A DNA stretch of 64,000 bases, taken from assembly GCA_964357605.1 (NCBI GenBank), contig CAYHLX010000004.1, positions 1,081-65,080 of the forward strand, given 5' to 3'. The notes beneath the pieces were generated by a model. That model searched no databases. It saw only the letters and a program-made list of their open reading frames with translations, and was not told the origin of the DNA. How positions within the stretch are numbered: position 1 is the stretch's first letter; every line of letters starts with the position of its first letter. Both the position numbers and the translations under genes were made by a program. Shown here piece by piece: positions 5,035 through 61,488 of the stretch. This DNA is from an uncultured Candidatus Saccharibacteria bacterium. GTDB lineage: Bacteria > Patescibacteriota > Minisyncoccia > Phycocordibacterales > PALSA-1337.

Positions 5035-6309
5035 CTATTTTTTAAAAGTTAAAAGAGATTTCAACTTTTTTTCATCTTTATTGGGACCAATCACCGCCAA
5101 ATTTAGATTTTTATCAACAAATATTTCCTGAGCTAATTTTTGTATTTCGCGAGCGGTCACCTTCTCTGTTTCGGTGATCACCTCTTCGGGCAACCTAATC
5201 TTTCCCTTGAGAATCTCTTGGAATCCGGCAAATTCGGCCTGAGCATCAGAGGTTTCCAGATCCAACATTGTCGTACCAGCCAGATAATCTTTGGCTTTTC
5301 TCAACTCTTTTTCAGAAATTATTTCTTCTTTAAGTCTATTCAACTCTGACAGAATCGTAGAGATTGCGATTTCCAATCTCTTGTTATCAACTCCCGCAGA
5401 AATAGTTAGATCACCATGATCGGTATTAGGATTATGCGAAGCTCTGATGTAATAGCAGATTCCTAGCTCATCTCTCATTTTTGAGAAAAGACGTGAGCTC
5501 ATCCCCTTTCCCAAGATCGTCGTCAACATCCTCATGGTCGGAATTCTCGGATCGAGAATGGGAAAAGTTCGGAGGCCAATCACCAAATGGCTTTGATCGG
5601 TCTCTTTATAAACCACCTTTAGTTCTGGTTTCGTTTGAGATTCTTGAACGGCGACTTTTTTAGCTTTTGGCTGACGAGGAATATCCTTGAAAATTTGTTC
5701 TACCTTCTTTGTGACTTCTTTTTCGTCAATAGAACCAGAGACAATGACCGTCGTAGCTTCGGCCACATAATGTTGGTCTTTATAAGCTACAAAATGCTCT
5801 CGACCAAATTTCCTAATATTTTCTTCTGGACCAGTCACACTCCAACCGGCTGGTTGGTCTGGGAACATAAGTTCACCTAGCACATCCTGAACATGTTGCT
5901 GAGGTAGATCATTGTACATTTTTATTTCTTCAATAATCACTCCCTTTTCTTTATTTATTTCTGCTTCATCAAAAAGAGGGTTCTGATACATGTCAGAAAC
6001 AATATCCAAAGCTGTATCTAAATGCTTAGGATCCACTTTAGCATAATAGCCAGTATATTCCTGTGAGGTGAAAGCATTGTATTGGGCCCCGAGACTATCC
6101 AATTCTCTGGAAAGATCACTCGCTTTTGGTCTTCTGGGAGTGCCTTTAAATATGACGTGCTCTAGAAAATGCGACAGGCCATTGATCTCTTTCGTCTCGT
6201 ACTTTGAGCCCGCTTCAACCATGACCAAAACGGTCACGGCGGGATTATCCTGCATGGGTACGGTAATAACTCTTAGGCCATTTTTTAGAACGGTTTTGGT
6301 AAATTTCAT
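5035..6309 (-). CDS. M16-family zinc peptidase (insulinase-like)
   Basis: Inverted zinc motif HFLEH...E. Confidence 0.8.
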   Translation of the reverse strand: MKFTKTVLKNGLRVITVPMQDNPAVTVLVMVEAGSKYETKEINGLSHFLEHVIFKGTPRRPKASDLSRELDSLGAQYNAFTSQEYTGYYAKVDPKHLDTALDIVSDMYQNPLFDEAEINKEKGVIIEEIKMYNDLPQQHVQDVLGELMFPDQPAGWSVTGPEENIRKFGREHFVAYKDQHYVAEATTVIVSGSIDEKEVTKKVEQIFKDIPRQPKAKKVAVQESQTKPELKVVYKETDQSHLVIGLRTFPILDPRIPTMRMLTTILGKGMSSRLFSKMRDELGICYYIRASHNPNTDHGDLTISAGVDNKRLEIAISTILSELNRLKEEIISEKELRKAKDYLAGTTMLDLETSDAQAEFAGFQEILKGKIRLPEEVITETEKVTAREIQKLAQEIFVDKNLNLAVIGPNKDEKKLKSLLTFKK

Positions 6310-26636: not shown

Positions 26637-26685
26637 CTCCACCTCGCAAAGATTCCGCACGGTAAAAGCCGGGCGGTTTCTTTTT
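26637..26685. repeat. 49-bp direct repeat, copy 1 (terminator-like hairpin inside)
   Basis: ctccacctcgcaaagattccgcacggtaaaagccgggcggtttcttttt is identical to 27578..27626. Confidence 0.9.
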
Positions 26686-26726
26686 TCCCACTGGAAAAGA
26701 TAGAAAGCTTATGGTATAATACACCT

Positions 26727-26915
26727 ATGAAAAACTGGTCAACTGACACGAGAGAGCTAGAAAAAAACCATCAGCAGCTCGAGATATGGAAACTCGAACA
26801 ACTTATTAACTTTGGTCTAGACGGAAAAAAACTTAACAAAGAAACCCTAAAAAAGTATTGGGCTTCCCTCTCTCTAGATCCTTATAAAAAAAAGTTCTTA
26901 TCTCTTTTTCTTTAA
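26727..26915 (+). CDS. Small ORF (62 aa) translationally coupled to the AbiEii-like gene; possible cognate antitoxin
   Basis: TATAAT at 26715-26720. Its stop overlaps the next start (TAATG). Confidence 0.3.
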   Translation: MKNWSTDTRELEKNHQQLEIWKLEQLINFGLDGKKLNKETLKKYWASLSLDPYKKKFLSLFL

Positions 26916-27574
26916 TGAGTTCCATACTTTCAGAAAATCAGAAAAATTTGATCTCACTCATTGGAAAAGAATCTTCTCTGTGTAACGCTTTTTATTTAGG
27001 AGGAGGCACTGCACTCGCAGAATTTTATCTCCATCATAGATTATCTGAAGATCTTGATTTCTTTTCTGAGAATGAATTTGATCCTATGAGTATTACTGTC
27101 TTCTTCAAAAAAATCGAGAGAGAAGCGGGAATATTAAGAACTGAATATGAGCAGAGCTTTAACCGCAATCTTTTTTTTCTTGAACTCAAGAATGACAGAA
27201 TTAAGACTGAATTTACATATTTTCCCTTCCAGAGAGTTGAGAAAGACAATTATTTTAAAAATATCCAAATAGATAGTCTTCTAGATATAGCTATCAATAA
27301 AGTCTTTACCATTTATCAAAAACCTCGTTCGAGAGACTTCATCGATCTTTACTGTATATTACAAAAGGAAAAAGATTGGACTCTCGAAGAACTTGGAAAA
27401 AAAGCTCAGATCAAGTTCGACACGTATCTTGATCCGATCCAACTTGGCTCCCAACTTGTTAAGGTAACAGAATTAAAAGATTATCCACGAATGATCATTG
27501 AACTTAAGGAGAAAGACTGGCAAGATTTCTTTTTACATGAAGCAAGTAAATTGGAGAAAAGAATTCTGAGTTAA
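26915..27574 (+). CDS. AbiEii/AbiGii-family nucleotidyltransferase (type IV TA toxin / abortive-infection family)
   Basis: Motif LGGGTALAEFYLHHRLSEDLDFF. Confidence 0.75.
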   Translation: MSSILSENQKNLISLIGKESSLCNAFYLGGGTALAEFYLHHRLSEDLDFFSENEFDPMSITVFFKKIEREAGILRTEYEQSFNRNLFFLELKNDRIKTEFTYFPFQRVEKDNYFKNIQIDSLLDIAINKVFTIYQKPRSRDFIDLYCILQKEKDWTLEELGKKAQIKFDTYLDPIQLGSQLVKVTELKDYPRMIIELKEKDWQDFFLHEASKLEKRILS

Positions 27575-28473
27575 GCTCTCCACCTCGCAAAGATTCCGCA
27601 CGGTAAAAGCCGGGCGGTTTCTTTTTCTTCTATCGTCAACTCACCTTTTTCTATTGTTCCACCAAACTTTTCTTTCAAAAAGAGTAGGTTATTCTCATAT
27701 GCCACCGCTGAATAACCCGCAGAATATCCATTGATAATAAAAAATAGAGGTTTATCAGAGAGAAGTTGCAGACAATTCTCAACCAAAGGAAGAAAATGCT
27801 CCTCTATCTTCCACAACTCCTTGGATGGACCATGACCAAAAGCGGGAGGGTCCATCACAATACCGTCATATTTCCTTCCCCTCTTGATCTCCCTCTCTAC
27901 AAAAATCCTCACATCCTCAATAATCCATCTGATAGGTTTGTCCGTAAGACCCGAAAGTTCCGCATTCTCCCGCGCCCAAGACACCGCAGATTTTGAACTA
28001 TCCACATGAACAACTTTAGCCCCTACTTTGGCGCAAGAGAGGGTGGCTCCGCCAGTATAACCAAAAAGATTAAGAATTTCACACTCTCTTCTCTCAGAAA
28101 TAACTTTCCTCATCCATTCCCAATTCAGAGCTTGTTCCGGAAAAAGACCAGTGTGTTTGAAAGCGGTTGGTTTAATATGAAATTTCAAATCAGCAAATTC
28201 TATTTCCCATTTACTAGGAATATCCTTTTTCAAATTCCATTTACCATCCTTCCCTTCACGAGAAAAAATGGCGTGAGCTTTCTTCCACTCAGTGTCAGAC
28301 AAATGTTTCTTCCACAGAGTCTGCGGATCTGGTCTAGACAAAACAACATTTCCAAAACGTTCCAATTTCTCCCCCTCGCCAGAGTCTAGGAGTTCGTAGT
28401 CTTTGCTAGATTTTAGAATTAAAAGAGAATTATTATTCACGATATTTGGCAAAAGAATACATAGAAAAAACAA
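27571..28473 (-). CDS. Class I SAM-dependent RNA methyltransferase (RlmI/YccW-like); 3' end uncertain
   Basis: GYTGGATL ... DPPAFG motifs. The C-terminal ~17 aa are encoded by repeat copy 2. Confidence 0.6.
   Translation of the reverse strand: MFFLCILLPNIVNNNSLLILKSSKDYELLDSGEGEKLERFGNVVLSRPDPQTLWKKHLSDTEWKKAHAIFSREGKDGKWNLKKDIPSKWEIEFADLKFHIKPTAFKHTGLFPEQALNWEWMRKVISERRECEILNLFGYTGGATLSCAKVGAKVVHVDSSKSAVSWARENAELSGLTDKPIRWIIEDVRIFVEREIKRGRKYDGIVMDPPAFGHGPSKELWKIEEHFLPLVENCLQLLSDKPLFFIINGYSAGYSAVAYENNLLFLKEKFGGTIEKGELTIEEKETARLLPCGIFARWRA
27578..27626. repeat. 49-bp direct repeat, copy 2
   Basis: Identical to 26637..26685. Lies 3 nt after the AbiEii-like gene's stop codon and supplies the last ~17 codons of the minus-strand ORF 27571..28473. 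Confidence 0.9.
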
Positions 28474-42025: not shown

Positions 42026-42109
42026 TGGTGCCCAGGAGAGGATTCGCACCTCCACGCCTTACGGCACACGCACCTCAAGCGTGCTTGGCTACTGTTACAA
42101 CACCTGGGC
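42026..42109 (-). tRNA. tRNA-Leu (anticodon GAG), type II with a long variable arm, CCA encoded
   Basis: Acceptor GCCCAGG/CCTGGGC and anticodon stem CACGC/GCGTG with loop TTGAGGT. Confidence 0.8.
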
Positions 42110-42784
42110 ATTAATGCTTTCTTGTTTCTTCACTATACCCAAACTTTTCTTTATTTTCAAGTACTTTCTAGTTAAAAATAGGCTCTCTTTATTTTTATAC
42201 ATATATTTGAAAAGTATGACTGACTCATTTTTTGCATATTTTAACTGAAAACAAGACTGATTTTTTGATTTGGTAATATGCCCTTTTATTTCAATTTCTT
42301 TACGTAGAGTATCTTGTAACCAGGTAATATGCTTTTTACTTGCAGATATAAATTCCAAATACAACATAAAACTTGATTTCCATCTTTTATCCCAATAGGA
42401 GTATGAGCATCCATCTCCATCAAAACTTCCTCTTATGAAGTCTCTCATGTATTTTTGTGGAACATCTATCTTTCCTATAGTTTTTGATTTATTAGATGTC
42501 AAACCAATCGACTGAAGAAATTTGTAAAATAAAACATCACCTATTTGAATAACATAGTATTTCTTTTCAGACCCTGATCCACTTCCTTTCATACAGTAAT
42601 CGTATGAAATACTTAGAGCTTTCTGAAAATTATCGACCATTTCTTTATCTATAGATGTAAAAGAGATATGCCTATTATCTGGTGATAAGTTCCCATCAGT
42701 TGCAATAAGCCCGATCGCATACGCAAAATTAGCTGACCATTTGATCTTCACTTTACCTCTTGGTTTTGGTCCTCTCTTCCCCAT
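42095..42784 (-). CDS. LAGLIDADG-family homing endonuclease (two-motif, free-standing)
   Basis: AYAIGLIATDGNLS and FIRGSFDGDGCSY motifs. The 3' end overlaps the 5' end of tRNA-Leu by 15 nt. Confidence 0.65.
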   Translation of the reverse strand: MGKRGPKPRGKVKIKWSANFAYAIGLIATDGNLSPDNRHISFTSIDKEMVDNFQKALSISYDYCMKGSGSGSEKKYYVIQIGDVLFYKFLQSIGLTSNKSKTIGKIDVPQKYMRDFIRGSFDGDGCSYSYWDKRWKSSFMLYLEFISASKKHITWLQDTLRKEIEIKGHITKSKNQSCFQLKYAKNESVILFKYMYKNKESLFLTRKYLKIKKSLGIVKKQESINAQVL

Positions 42785-42900: not shown

Positions 42901-43746
42901 TCAGAACTGCTCCGTAAGTTTGGCGATGGTTTTGTAGCGTTCGAAAAGAAGCTGTTTGATCGCTTCACCATCCTTCTCCTGGCTCTTCCGAAATGGGTCC
43001 TTGTCAAACGCCTCTGCCTTGTTCCCACCCTTCCACAGCCGCCACTCATCCGGCGTGATTGCATCAATCACCACCGTCCTCCCCGTCAAAGGACAGATGC
43101 CAACCTCAATCTTGAGATCCACCAGGGTGTACCCAAGTTTCGCCCACGATTTGGCCAGAATCCGATAAGTATTGAGGACAAGCACGTTAACTTCCAGGAA
43201 GAAATCACTGATTTCCTCACAGGAAGGTGCATGCCCCCACAGATCCCACCTTTCATCCTTGAAATCCAGGAACCCAAGTCCTGAACCAGTCGCTGTGAGT
43301 GGCAAAGCCGGCTTGTGAAGTGTGTATAGACCCTCCATGGAATCAGCCGTCTGAATAAACGGGTCATGCCGAGCGTCATCCTTTAAGAACATTTCGGTGA
43401 TGGGGCTCCCGAAAACCTCGCCCTCTTTCGCATCAGGATTGCGTTTGAGGTATGAGCCGGTAGCAATACCACGGCAAACGACTTCCACCGGCGCTGGGTA
43501 TGCATACAAAGCCATGAAAGAATCACGCCCCGAGGCCTCGATGAAAGTGGTAGATATACCACTCTTGTGAAGAAGGCGGAAGCAGTTGCCAGCAATGGCA
43601 GAGGATAGTGCCCCTTTGCCCGGCACCCGGATCAATGAGGCGCCATCGCCAGCAGTCACGTTGTCAGAAAAATGCACCTGCACAACCTGAGAAGGAAAAC
43701 CTCTGATTGTCTTGGTTTTTCCTTGATGGAATTTGATCGTCTTCAT
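42901..43746 (-). CDS. purC: SAICAR synthetase (PurC, short bacterial type). GC-rich (about 50%).
   Basis: Blocks HQGKTKTIRG, FSDNVTAGDGAS, VEVVCRGIATGSYLKR, LVDLKIEVG, and RLWKGGNK match E. coli PurC. Confidence 0.85.
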   Translation of the reverse strand: MKTIKFHQGKTKTIRGFPSQVVQVHFSDNVTAGDGASLIRVPGKGALSSAIAGNCFRLLHKSGISTTFIEASGRDSFMALYAYPAPVEVVCRGIATGSYLKRNPDAKEGEVFGSPITEMFLKDDARHDPFIQTADSMEGLYTLHKPALPLTATGSGLGFLDFKDERWDLWGHAPSCEEISDFFLEVNVLVLNTYRILAKSWAKLGYTLVDLKIEVGICPLTGRTVVIDAITPDEWRLWKGGNKAEAFDKDPFRKSQEKDGEAIKQLLFERYKTIAKLTEQF

Positions 43747-45751: not shown

Positions 45752-45838
45752 GACTATTATAGTATATCGCTATAACACAAGAAGTCAAGACTGGAATGAT
45801 TGAAAATTTATCTTTTTTAGTCTATGCTACCTACTATT

Positions 45839-45914
45839 GCGCGATTAGCTCAGTTGGTAGAGCAACATGCTTACACCATGAAGGTCGCAGGTTCAAGTCC
45901 TGCATCGCGCACCA
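45839..45914 (+). tRNA. tRNA-Val (anticodon TAC), CCA encoded
   Basis: GCGCGAT acceptor, anticodon loop CTTACAC, T-arm GCAGG-TTCAAGT-CCTGC. Confidence 0.85.
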
Positions 45915-54319: not shown

Positions 54320-55354
54320 TTAGTCATAAAAAAGCCTTGCTATAGAATCTTTAATTTTCTCACTTTTACAATGAGAGAGCATACCGAGATAAGATTGCAT
54401 TGATTGTTCAAGAAATTCTTTGGTGATTTTTCCTTCTTCGTATGAACATTTTAGTTTTCGTATTTTATTGAGCATCCTTCTCTTGGTTCTCGTCCTCAAA
54501 ACTTTGTGGTGTGGTAAGGATACATAGCCAAGAAAATCCGTCCCTGTGTTCAATTTTCTTATAGTTACCTTATTTGGATGAAGTTCCATCCGAAGATTAT
54601 CTGTTAAAAATGATTGGATTTTTAAAATACACTCTTGTAAAAAGTCTCTGGAGTTATGAACGATAACAAAATCATCACAGTAACGAATATAATATTTCGT
54701 TTTGAGTGTATGTTTGCAAAATTGATCTAGCTCATTGAGATAGATATTTGCGAATACCTGGCTAGTTACATTGCCCAAAGGCAAACCTTTTCCCTGCGTC
54801 ACCTTAAATGAATCTATGATTTTATTAAGAAGATCTAAAAGCTCCTCGTCATGTACCCTCTTTCCCACCAGAGATTTGAGAACTTGGTGATCAATTGAAT
54901 CAAAGAATTTTCTGATATCGCATTTAAGAACAAAAGCTTGCTGTGTATAATTTCTAGAAACCTTTCTTGAAAATTGTTCCAATCTCTCTACTCCCTTGTG
55001 AGTACCTTTGTCATCTCTTGACGCAAAAGAATCATGAATAAAAGTCTTATCAAAAACCTGATATAATGCCTGATACAGAGCTTGGTAAAGGACCCTATCA
55101 CGGACACTCGCTTTGTGAATTTTCCTCAATTTCGGATCTTGGACATAGAATGCCTTGTATGGATCAGGCTTCCACTTACCAATAATTAGTTCGTTGCAAA
55201 GACTAAAAAGATTTTCCTCCAAATTAAACTCAAATTCTGCAACTTCTTTTTTTGATCTTTTTCCTTTTCTAAATCTTTTCCACGCCCGAAACAGATTTTC
55301 AAGACTTATTACATCACAAAAATTCAAACTATGACGCCCCCCCCCCGAACACAC
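54320..55354 (-). CDS. Diversity-generating retroelement reverse transcriptase
   Basis: 344 aa with RT motifs, YCDD box, and the DGR-specific motif-4 signature LGNVTSQVFANIYLNELD. GTG start directly followed by a G10 tract. Confidence 0.85.
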   Translation of the reverse strand: MCSGGGRHSLNFCDVISLENLFRAWKRFRKGKRSKKEVAEFEFNLEENLFSLCNELIIGKWKPDPYKAFYVQDPKLRKIHKASVRDRVLYQALYQALYQVFDKTFIHDSFASRDDKGTHKGVERLEQFSRKVSRNYTQQAFVLKCDIRKFFDSIDHQVLKSLVGKRVHDEELLDLLNKIIDSFKVTQGKGLPLGNVTSQVFANIYLNELDQFCKHTLKTKYYIRYCDDFVIVHNSRDFLQECILKIQSFLTDNLRMELHPNKVTIRKLNTGTDFLGYVSLPHHKVLRTRTKRRMLNKIRKLKCSYEEGKITKEFLEQSMQSYLGMLSHCKSEKIKDSIARLFYD

Positions 55355-55475
55355 CCTCTCTATTATTGAAAAGATTCGCCTGCTTCATGCGGATATTTAT
55401 ATCATAGGACAGAGACTTCCTAAACAGCACAAACTTGGTATTCATCATGATTTAGAGAGAGCAATTGGAAAGATT

Positions 55476-55703
55476 ATGGAATTGACCATAGAAGCTAGAT
55501 TTCTAGTGGCCAAAAATAAGATTAGGGTATTAGAAATTACTCGAATCAAGAATGAAGTATTGAAACACACCATTCGTACAGAATACGAGTTTAAAATTAT
55601 AAATGAAAAGGAATACTTGAGGCTTGCTGGTCAAATTGTAGAAATCTCAAGAATGATTAACGGCTGGATAAGGTACCTAACAGAAAAAAGTCATGTTAGT
55701 TAG
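55476..55703 (+). CDS. Truncated Avd-like four-helix-bundle protein (75 aa), antisense to the RT/TR transcript
   Basis: C-terminus LAGQIVEISRMINGWIRYL resembles the Avd / S23-IVS family C-terminal helix (bAvd ...EVGRILGSWIARV). Confidence 0.4.
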   Translation: MELTIEARFLVAKNKIRVLEITRIKNEVLKHTIRTEYEFKIINEKEYLRLAGQIVEISRMINGWIRYLTEKSHVS

Positions 55704-55728
55704 ACAATGACTTTTTCTGCAAAAACTT

Positions 55729-55841
55729 CCAAGCGAGCCCCGATGTTCGGATTGCAATTGTCACGATAGTTCCAGTTGAAGTTGGCCTGGGCGTTGTTGA
55801 CGTTCCAGTTGCCGTTAGCCACCTTCTTGTCACCAGGCAAC
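55729..55841 (-). repeat. DGR template repeat (TR)
   Basis: 113 bp homologous to 56122..56234. 22 of its 31 minus-strand adenines are substituted in the other copy. Confidence 0.8.
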
Positions 55842-56092
55842 GCACTAGTATCACCTCTTTTCCCTATCACCAAAAATCATTTTCATAATTTTTTGTGTTT
55901 TGTGTATCCATTTGTATTCAATGGCATTGTATAAAAGATGACACGCAGTTTTTATATTATGGCAAATTGCTATTCTCTGTATATAGGGAACCAATTTTAC
56001 AACCACCATCATCAGTATAAATAAAAGAAAAGTGGCGTGCAATATTTCAGCACACCACTTTATTGAATTCCCCAAGCCCAAGGGAAAAAGAG

Positions 56093-56953
56093 TTAGGACT
56101 TGCGAAGGGCAAAGAACTCTACCAAGCGAGCCCCGAGGCTCGGAGAGCAAAGGCCACGAGAGTGCCAGCGGAAATCGGCCTGAGCGCTGTCGACGACCCA
56201 GTAGCCGTGCGCCACCCGCTCGCCACCAGGCAACCGATCATCAGGAAACCATGTGAGCGTTTCCCCAGAATCAAGATGCTCGTCGGTGATTAGGAAGTGG
56301 AGATTATCCGCATCTGACCAACCAAACAGGTTAATCCAGTTCTGATTCTTCTCAACCTTGACTTCGAGGAGTCCGTCCGGCGACTTGGCATTTTTGCCCA
56401 AGGTATCTGCATCAGGCCGAATAGATCGCTTGATGAAACCGAGTTGAGAAATATCTAAACCCCTAGAGTTCTTGTATTTCATCACGTCTGCTTCCTCGTA
56501 AGAGGCGTTCATGCCGAGCTTCATCTTCCAGTCAAGCGCCATCCTATTGGTGGCACCGGCGGGACGAAAAACTGGCATGATGTCGGTCCGGGCCAAGACT
56601 CGGTCATCCATCATGAACATGTCCCGGAAGATGACTGTCTCGCCCGTGAGGAACTTGTGAAGTTTCTCTCGAGCTTCCAGCCATTCTGCGAAGGTCTCGC
56701 CGGTGGCGGTGAGAATGAGTGGTTCGGGAGTTGGGACCTTTGCAGATTCCACGACCTCAACCCTGCTCACCTCTCCTGGAAGGACGAAACCTCGACGCAA
56801 CACTTCCTGCAGTTGAGGCAGGTTTTGTTCGTAGTGTTCCAATTGCTCAATCGTGAGAACTTGAGGCATATTGGAGACCAGTTTTAGGCCGAGGTTAAAT
56901 CCACGCACAATGAGTGCTGGATCCTGTGTTTCAATCAAGGGTATACCTTTCAT
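56093..56953 (-). CDS. DGR target (variable) protein with VR at the C-terminus. GC-rich (about 50%).
   Basis: 286 aa. The last ~38 codons are the VR. C-terminus WSDADN...GYWVVDSAQADFRWH resembles C-type-lectin-fold DGR variable domains (inference). Confidence 0.7.
   Translation of the reverse strand: MKGIPLIETQDPALIVRGFNLGLKLVSNMPQVLTIEQLEHYEQNLPQLQEVLRRGFVLPGEVSRVEVVESAKVPTPEPLILTATGETFAEWLEAREKLHKFLTGETVIFRDMFMMDDRVLARTDIMPVFRPAGATNRMALDWKMKLGMNASYEEADVMKYKNSRGLDISQLGFIKRSIRPDADTLGKNAKSPDGLLEVKVEKNQNWINLFGWSDADNLHFLITDEHLDSGETLTWFPDDRLPGGERVAHGYWVVDSAQADFRWHSRGLCSPSLGARLVEFFALRKS
56122..56234 (-). repeat. DGR variable repeat (VR)
   Basis: 25 mismatches to TR, 22 of them at TR adenine positions. 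The shared 3' end CCAAGCGAGCCCCGA is an IMH-like GC-rich segment. Confidence 0.8.
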
Positions 56954-61392: not shown

Positions 61393-61412
61393 TTTTGGAC
61401 CTTCGTGTATAT

Positions 61413-61488
61413 GCGCCCATAGCTCAGTTGGTAGAGCATCTCCCTTTTAAGGAGTGGGTCGTAGGTTCGATTCCTACTGGGCGCACCA
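61413..61488 (+). tRNA. tRNA-Lys (anticodon TTT), CCA encoded
   Basis: GCGCCCA acceptor, anticodon loop CTTTTAA, T-arm GTAGG-TTCGATT-CCTAC. Confidence 0.85.

Follow-up and report, generated by a model that had tools for sequence, protein, structure and literature searches.

The 64,000-nt stretch of DNA analysed here (the window; contig CAYHLX010000004.1, assembly GCA_964357605.1, of an uncultured Candidatus Saccharibacteria bacterium) carries an 892-bp insert between a Cys-rich protein gene and a convergent RNA methyltransferase gene. The insert consists of a promoter-like site and two genes, which code for a 62-aa protein (small62) and a 219-aa AbiEii/DUF1814 nucleotidyltransferase, and is bounded by two identical copies of a 49-mer. 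We consider it probable that these genes form a complete two-gene module of the toxin-antitoxin (TA) type (DUF1814/AbiEii, MenAT-like), inserted as a 0.9-kb cassette between the convergent genes with a 49-bp duplication. The right copy of the 49-mer is the native 3′ end of the methyltransferase gene, and the cassette is absent from the related loci. That the insertion itself created the duplication, and the order in which these events took place, we infer from this arrangement. The case appears to be a tidy and fairly ordinary gene-cassette insertion, of a module that is common in Patescibacteria.

The insert and its 49-bp repeats

Exact matching gave two copies of the 49-mer, CTCCACCTCGCAAAGATTCCGCACGGTAAAAGCCGGGCGGTTTCTTTTT, at a period of 941 nt (Table 1). 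The bases that flank the two copies are not the same (c/t before, t/c after), which sets the repeat length at exactly 49 nt. This pair is the sole exact long direct repeat of the 64-kb window. The search for the full 49-mer covered the window and gave no third copy, even when up to three mismatches were allowed, and none of 100 shuffles matched. A 30-nt core of the 49-mer was searched in a metagenome collection, and only the window's own locus was found. With two copies in 64 kb and a core seen at this locus only in the collection, the 49-mer does not qualify as a dispersed intergenic repeat of the repetitive extragenic palindrome (REP) or miniature inverted-repeat transposable element (MITE) kind. 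By the list of open reading frames (ORFs), the copies bracket only the 62-codon small62 ORF and the 219-codon AbiEii ORF, which are joined by TAATG. A preliminary description of this DNA had given the same arrangement, which was confirmed, and had named a frequent intergenic 49-mer as counter-evidence; in the sequence searched, the 49-mer was found nowhere else. The GC content of the insert was 0.337, compared with 0.397 for the window, and that of the AbiEii gene was the third-lowest among the window's 51 long ORFs.

The methyltransferase locus was compared with 80 related loci from GTDB genomes, each at most 71% identical to the window's methyltransferase (MTase). The gene order in these relatives is DsbA-VKOR-MTase-RluA-FolD on a single strand, with the RluA start often a few nt past the methyltransferase. 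AbiEii, small62 and the Cys-rich gene were all absent at this site in the 80 loci, and the Cys-rich gene adjoined the methyltransferase in none of them. In the window, an opposite-strand block of four genes (a 100-aa ORF, the Cys-rich gene, small62 and AbiEii) parts the methyltransferase from RluA. The protein alignment across the related loci reached residues 298-300 of the query, and a C-terminal motif, RLLP[CA]GIFARW followed by 1-10 variable residues, was kept across Patescibacteria orthologs. The window protein has RLLPCGIFARW, and this motif lies in the right copy, indicating that the right copy is native coding sequence and that the methyltransferase is intact; the 3′ end of this gene, which the preliminary description had called uncertain, is therefore the family's own. 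The left copy matched methyltransferase residues 283-300 only (tblastn). Because no more methyltransferase sequence adjoins it, the left copy is a non-coding duplicate.

The pairing of the two cassette genes is obligate: small62 was found directly upstream of a 219-225-aa AbiEii in 10 of 10 independent contexts, namely the window and nine homologs. The neighbourhoods are otherwise unrelated. They comprise the Cys-rich gene and the methyltransferase in the window and, elsewhere, AlaRS, a 92-aa gene, SecA, peptidase M16, the target gene of a diversity-generating retroelement (DGR), a TrwB-like ATPase with PGK, a 765-aa gene, UDG with a Kelch protein, and TruB with peptidase M20. When nine cassettes are compared at the nucleotide level, they are homologous from the promoter as far as the stop codon of AbiEii. 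The window insert, which extends 41 nt upstream of the ATG and 3 nt past the stop, has limits that coincide with those set by homology. The native right copy, the relatives without the cassette and the identity of the insert with the cassette defined by homology in nine contexts thus support the earlier impression that the repeats are a target duplication tied to the insertion.

On the + strand, the 49-mer forms a hairpin, CCGC.CGGU / GCCG.GCGG, followed by UUUCUUUUU (-18.1 kcal/mol, z = -3.3), in agreement with the terminator-like character ascribed to it before. The hairpin and its U-run lie 8 nt past the Cys-rich stop, where the left copy begins, and 3 nt past the AbiEii stop, which is the arrangement of an intrinsic (Rho-independent) terminator; the fold and its position suggest that it functions as one. 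A simple terminator consensus scan misses this hairpin because the stem holds an A.G mismatch, and no Rfam family was found in 25-29 kb. The fold of the 49 nt was more stable than that of the equivalent methyltransferase stretch in 46 of 49 orthologs (-18.1 vs a mean of -9.3, sd 4.6), in keeping with a coding end that also serves as terminator for a convergent gene. Antisense hairpins with a T-run were also seen within the last codons of the orthologous methyltransferase in two loci of other lineages, L046 and L043 (GGCAAAAGGCG...CGCCTTTTT), indicating that a terminator embedded in the methyltransferase end is not unique to the window.

We propose that 49 bp of the methyltransferase 3′ end were duplicated upon insertion; this stretch also forms the terminator-like hairpin of the opposite strand. 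The right copy remains the true C-terminus of the methyltransferase and would end transcription of the cassette, and the cassette end now provides the last two codons and the stop codon of the methyltransferase; the stop codons of the methyltransferase and AbiEii overlap in TTAA (27571-27574). The left copy, whose end lies 7 nt upstream of the -35 hexamer, would leave the Cys-rich gene with a terminator and insulate the cassette promoter, and the cassette would be bracketed by terminators. By means of a duplicated gene end that doubles as a terminator, the cassette could enter a very compact genome and leave both convergent neighbours undamaged.

Table 1. Coordinates of the cassette, its flanking repeats and the two neighbouring genes in the window
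Feature	Position	Strand	Basis or remark
Cys-rich protein gene, 303 aa	25717..26628	+	ORF list; left neighbour
Left 49-mer copy	26637..26685	+	Non-coding duplicate of the methyltransferase 3′ end; hairpin and U-run
Insert between the repeats, 892 bp (promoter and two genes)	26686..27577	+	Bounded by the repeats
Promoter-like site (TGGAAA, 17 nt, TATAAT, upstream TG)	26692..26720	+	Best sigma-70-like site in 25-29 kb, 10/12 matches
small62, 62-aa basic helical protein, putative antitoxin	26727..26915	+	Directly upstream of AbiEii
AbiEii/DUF1814 nucleotidyltransferase, 219 aa, putative toxin	26915..27574	+	Start overlaps the small62 stop (TAATG)
Right 49-mer copy	27578..27626	-	Native last ~16 methyltransferase codons, KETARLLPCGIFARW-R; + strand gives hairpin and U-run right after AbiEii
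RlmI/RlmK-like S-adenosylmethionine (SAM)-dependent RNA methyltransferase	27571..28473	-	PF10672, E = 2.7e-13; right neighbour

The methyltransferase also gave partial matches to NCBIfam RlmK/RlmI, and gene callers place its start at 28452, which gives a protein of 293 aa. The Cys-rich protein matched no Pfam or NCBIfam family.

The nucleotidyltransferase and its 62-aa partner

The 219-aa protein is a member of the AbiEii/DUF1814 family. It matched Pfam AbiEii PF08843 over residues 20-207 (E = 6.4e-18; 66 bits, cut-off 22.5) as well as 17 PADLOC AbiEii models, and NCBI names it 'nucleotidyl transferase AbiEii/AbiGii toxin family protein'; the family had been recognised correctly in the preliminary description. 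Across 48 homologs, G31-T32, R42-S44-D46, K97-E99, N128-K129 and R138-R140-D141-D144 were invariant. Motifs I-IV of DUF1814 proteins have been given as GG[ST], an acidic D/E-x-D/E, a Lys-containing motif III and a DUF1814-specific R-x-R-D (PMC10435456), and MenT/AbiEii motifs are also described in PMC11375011. With residues assigned to motifs as in PMC10435456, motifs I-IV were found in the window protein as G30-G31-T32, S44-E45-D46-L47-D48, K97/E99, N128-K129 and R138-x-R140-D141-x-x-D144, all invariant or nearly so in the 48 homologs. A profile search of the PDB with the toxin matched 4OK0 alone (E = 0.008), and the MenT structures were not reached by sequence. One AbiEii protein, 65% identical to that of the window (P0369), is labelled 'Candidatus Micrarchaeaceae archaeon' (DPANN archaea), which means either that the gene has been transferred between these ultra-small cell groups or that the sequence was misbinned.

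No match to small62 was found in Pfam, NCBIfam or PADLOC; the partner is indeed tiny, as had been stated, and matches no known antitoxin family. However, small62 is not a fragment but a member of a conserved Patescibacteria family that has no Pfam model. At least 365 homologous proteins of about 62-63 aa were found, almost all from Patescibacteria, and a full profile search gave 224 representative clusters of the family, nearly all of 60-100 aa. The suggestion that the system is incomplete was not upheld, since this conserved family accompanied this subtype of AbiEii wherever the context was examined. A natural fusion of small62 with a full AbiEii was also present (P0161, 282 aa). In two further proteins, P0259 and P0240, small62 is fused to the C-terminal half of AbiEii only, and these probably derive from decaying modules.

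The AlphaFold2 (AF2) model of small62 consists of four short helices (predicted local distance difference test, pLDDT, 82), and the isoelectric point (pI) of the protein is 9.5. When this fold was compared with the PDB by Foldseek, no match had an E-value under 4, and a small62 profile search of all PDB sequences returned nothing relevant, MenA1 included. Given a basic protein, predicted to be a small helical bundle and without similarity to known antitoxins, and given that AbiE systems are annotated as phage-defence systems (PADLOC; PMC11375011), small62 could instead be a transcriptional regulator or a phage-sensing partner, or the pair could have a non-toxic housekeeping role in RNA modification. 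We hold these roles to be rather improbable, because the upstream position, the stop/start overlap, the strict co-occurrence and the natural fusion are the classical signs of a TA pair, and a 68-aa helical antitoxin of a DUF1814 toxin has been documented (PMC10435456). An antitoxin role for small62 and a toxin role for its partner remain our preferred assignment, drawn by analogy.

The cassette promoter has an extended -10 element that ends 6 nt ahead of the small62 ATG. The layout TGnTAnAAT-N5-6-ATG was seen in nine of the ten cassettes (window 26700-26729; L087, L088, L092, L095, L098, L111, L112 and L115). An extended -10 element so near the ATG leaves no space for a ribosome-binding site. 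The conservation of this layout suggests that small62 is probably translated from a leaderless mRNA, and transcription of the cassette is thus probably leaderless.

Upstream partners of short AbiEii proteins in the same phylum also include DUF6922 proteins (PF21956). None of 109 small62 members matched PF21956. A weak similarity was obtained by hhalign (probability 19.7%, P = 0.0012) over a shared N-terminal motif, W-S-x-D followed by h-h-x-Q-x-h-x-[FY]-G, and reciprocal hidden Markov model (HMM) searches gave many weak matches of 12-15 bits only. A distant link between small62 and DUF6922, seen in the sequences, is suggestive only. Weak matches of 53 small62 family members to DUF2674 (14-16 bits vs a cut-off of 27) fell in the Lys-rich C-terminus and were taken as compositional. 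Locus L092 carries, 0.5 kb downstream of its small62-AbiEii cassette, a second short AbiEii pair made up of a 99-aa DUF6922 protein and a 208-aa AbiEii (5384-6290). Locus L093 was considered as a presence/absence polymorphism of the cassette relative to L092 and was rejected; the two loci differ solely at the junction of the DUF6922-AbiEii pair, where a stretch of 131 nt is deleted or lost in a gap.

Origin of the flanking duplication

Nine evaluable cassette contexts were compared for flanking duplication. Besides the window, one more case was found, in L088 and L091, where the cassette is bounded 49 nt before the ATG and 6 nt past the stop. It is flanked by a diverged duplication of ~155 nt, with 80-90% identity and three indels, which stems from the 92-aa gene upstream and covers the ~50 codons at its end. 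The duplicated stretches of the window and L088 both hold a stable hairpin; with two cases, no pattern is claimed. A 115-nt flanking repeat in L098 was considered as a third target duplication and rejected. It is the variable repeat/template repeat (VR/TR) pair of a DGR, because all 12 mismatches fall at adenines of the copy that adjoins bAvd and the reverse transcriptase.

Several further features were observed at these loci. In L098 (2782-5595), the cassette has on one side the variable repeat, located at the 3′ end of a target gene with an AAA_5 domain, and on the other the template repeat, bAvd and reverse transcriptase; it sets the DGR apart from its target by about 1.2 kb. The downstream duplicate of L088 (4864-5096) is decayed and holds three extra segments of 20-35 nt, two of which are small GC-rich hairpins (e.g. 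CAGCCGT...ACGGCTG). About 250 nt beyond it, L088 carries an IS200-like Y1 transposase gene (5275-5778) with a perfect hairpin upstream, which is missing from the otherwise identical L091. In L103 (3852-3960; also in L105), a 25-nt unit is present in at least four tandem copies directly past the AbiEii stop and includes the gene's last codons (ATTGCGATTTATATCGCTACGCTAA).

In our scheme, the duplication could have arisen from staggered breaks filled in during repair, or from template switching at the hairpin; both would fit. One other reading is that the 49-mers are att-like repeats of a small integrative cassette, moved by a recombinase encoded elsewhere, with a core that overlaps the methyltransferase 3′ end. 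Islands sit at tRNA or gene 3′ ends; here, a discrete cassette lies between exact direct repeats that give the target gene back its 3′ end, and the cassette family is found at many different loci. However, a fixed attachment site is at odds with the duplications of the window and L088, which are unrelated and derive from different local sequences, each from the neighbouring gene. Moreover, outside the promoter and the stop codon the cassettes have no conserved termini in common, no terminal inverted repeats of the insert were found, and there was no integrase or transposase among the window ORFs scanned. Neither cassette gene was found on IMG/VR contigs, small62 was unmatched in plasmids and phages, and the AbiEii genes of plasmids were only about 30% identical. 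This reading is therefore very unlikely. With two genes only, no inverted ends, no conserved termini and locally derived duplications of 49 and ~155 nt, the unit is likewise no transposon, insertion sequence (IS) or integrative element.

The duplication might also have nothing to do with the cassette, which would then have entered separately. The shared terminator and gene end might have undergone a short local duplication, for example through slippage of replication or a template switch at the hairpin, or the copies might have been kept identical by gene conversion. Seven of the nine contexts show no flanking duplication, and the stable hairpins in the window and L088 stretches could provoke replication errors. 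On the other hand, the cassette exactly fills the gap between the copies, and in two independent cases the homology limits lie within a few nt of both repeat boundaries. A separate insertion placed precisely at the duplication junction twice is unlikely, and we regard an independent origin of the duplication as rather unlikely on the whole.

An artefact of assembly, in which the 49-bp repeat let the assembler thread an unrelated fragment or a small circle between the genes, was also considered. The coverage is low (3-4x), and contig L086 ends within the left copy and L003 ends 21 nt past the right copy. But the replicate assemblies L001, L002 and L003, from Hainich groundwater well H41, each hold both 49-mer copies with the cassette between them, indicating that an assembly loop is unlikely. 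The contig names are of the metaSPAdes style; the default largest k of that assembler is 55, above the repeat length of 49, so the junctions should rest on real k-mers. We consider an artefact extremely improbable.

Insertion of a TA-type cassette with duplication of the target is thus the reading we retain, and several findings weigh against it. The flanking duplication was seen in two of the nine evaluable contexts and was lacking in the other seven, and duplication is therefore not a regular hallmark of the small62-AbiEii cassette. We know of no insertion mechanism that yields target duplications of 49-155 bp. No integrase, transposase or recombinase was found among 30 window ORFs scanned or in the gene calls for ~15.8-29.5 kb. 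The putative antitoxin is basic and resembles neither MenA1 nor any other chain in the PDB in sequence or fold. The empty site foreseen in the preliminary description, with a single copy between the Cys-rich gene and the methyltransferase, was not found; the nearest genomes available (at most 71% MTase identity) have neither the cassette nor the Cys-rich gene. Searches for exact matches to the Cys-rich protein and to VKOR gave filled sites only, all from the same Hainich population.

A bolder reading is that small62-AbiEii is a recombinase-less mobile cassette of Patescibacteria, which enters hairpin-bearing gene 3′ ends and leaves duplications of 49 to ~155 bp, and that small62 represents a new class of DUF1814 antitoxins. 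We think this quite unlikely. If true, insertion would follow a route not described so far, such as a template switch at a stalled fork or, alternatively, repair-coupled capture of transformed DNA in naturally competent, recombination-poor cells. More generally, such duplications, should they recur, would be the mark of an insertion mechanism yet undescribed.

Other features were observed elsewhere in the window. A DGR lies at 54320-56953, with a reverse transcriptase at 54320-55354 (minus strand, PF00078), a template repeat at 55726-55841 and a variable repeat at 56119-56234; 23 of the 26 mismatches between the repeats are at template adenines. The variable repeat falls in the 3′ end of an ORF without Pfam match (56093-56953, minus strand). 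A LAGLIDADG_3 homing-endonuclease-like ORF (42095-42784, minus strand), whose GC content of 0.314 is the second-lowest in the window, adjoins a SAICAR synthetase gene (42901-43746), the product of which matches its Pfam model in two stretches. Two tRNA-like sequences (45838-45914 and 61412-61488), 71% identical, were found as a direct repeat; the second abuts a major facilitator superfamily (MFS) transporter gene, not an integrase.

Possible function and relation to known systems

We propose that the module carries its own extended -10 promoter and would be expressed as a leaderless bicistronic mRNA, from which small62 would be translated first and the nucleotidyltransferase by translational coupling through TAATG. 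On the model of MenT1/3/4 and AbiEii, the nucleotidyltransferase would be a toxin that extends the acceptor ends of tRNAs with added nucleotides and blocks translation. small62 would neutralise it by direct binding, possibly by triggering auto-phosphorylation of the invariant active-site Thr32. Precedents for tRNA 3′ extension and for antitoxin binding have been reported (PMC7450476, PMC10435456, PMC11375011, bioRxiv 10.64898/2026.01.19.700257). MenA1, the 68-aa helical antitoxin of the DUF1814 toxin MenT1 (PMC10435456), inhibits MenT1 through binding and induced auto-phosphorylation (PMC10435456, PMC11375011).

DUF1814/AbiEii toxins are among the most abundant TA and phage-defence effectors, and their antitoxins are diverse. 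How these antitoxins neutralise the toxin, by sequestration or by induced auto-phosphorylation, is an active question. What is new here is a compact 62-aa partner family without a Pfam, NCBIfam or PADLOC model, apparently confined to Patescibacteria. The conserved leaderless promoter layout and the natural fusion of toxin and partner make the module a simple candidate for biochemical study.

As a genomic unit, the cassette was compared with genomic islands and 'minimal mobile elements'. Like these, it is a discrete accessory cassette between conserved housekeeping genes, flanked by direct repeats which leave the target gene its 3′ end. However, it is a unit of 892 bp with two genes, it has no integrase, fixed attachment sequence or inverted ends, and its repeat derives from the local target gene.

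As for its gene content, the DUF6922 pairs of the same phylum (e.g. L092 5384-6290) are alike in having a ~100-aa protein directly upstream of a ~208-aa AbiEii, but small62 is about 40 residues shorter and no small62 member reaches the Pfam model. AbiE is a type IV TA and abortive-infection system, now proposed as type VII. With the AbiE systems of Lactococcus and Streptococcus agalactiae, the module shares an AbiEii toxin matched by PF08843 and PADLOC, a bicistronic order with the partner gene first, and overlapping genes. In contrast to AbiE, its 62-aa partner lacks a winged-helix domain and matches no family, and its toxin is short (219 aa). No AbiEi of ~200-300 aa with an N-terminal winged helix-turn-helix lies upstream, and the module is therefore not an AbiE system in the strict sense.

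The remaining comparison is with MenAT1 of Mycobacterium tuberculosis. small62 differs from MenA1 in that no sequence similarity or fold match between them was detected, in that its model has four short helices whereas MenA1 is a V-shaped pair, and in that its family is seen almost only in Patescibacteria. On the other hand, both systems combine a DUF1814/AbiEii-type nucleotidyltransferase with a very short, all-helical protein (as modelled for small62) encoded directly upstream, and the active-site Ser/Thr position is conserved, being Thr32 in the window protein. By this analogy, MenAT1 is the known system that the module would most resemble in the way it works.

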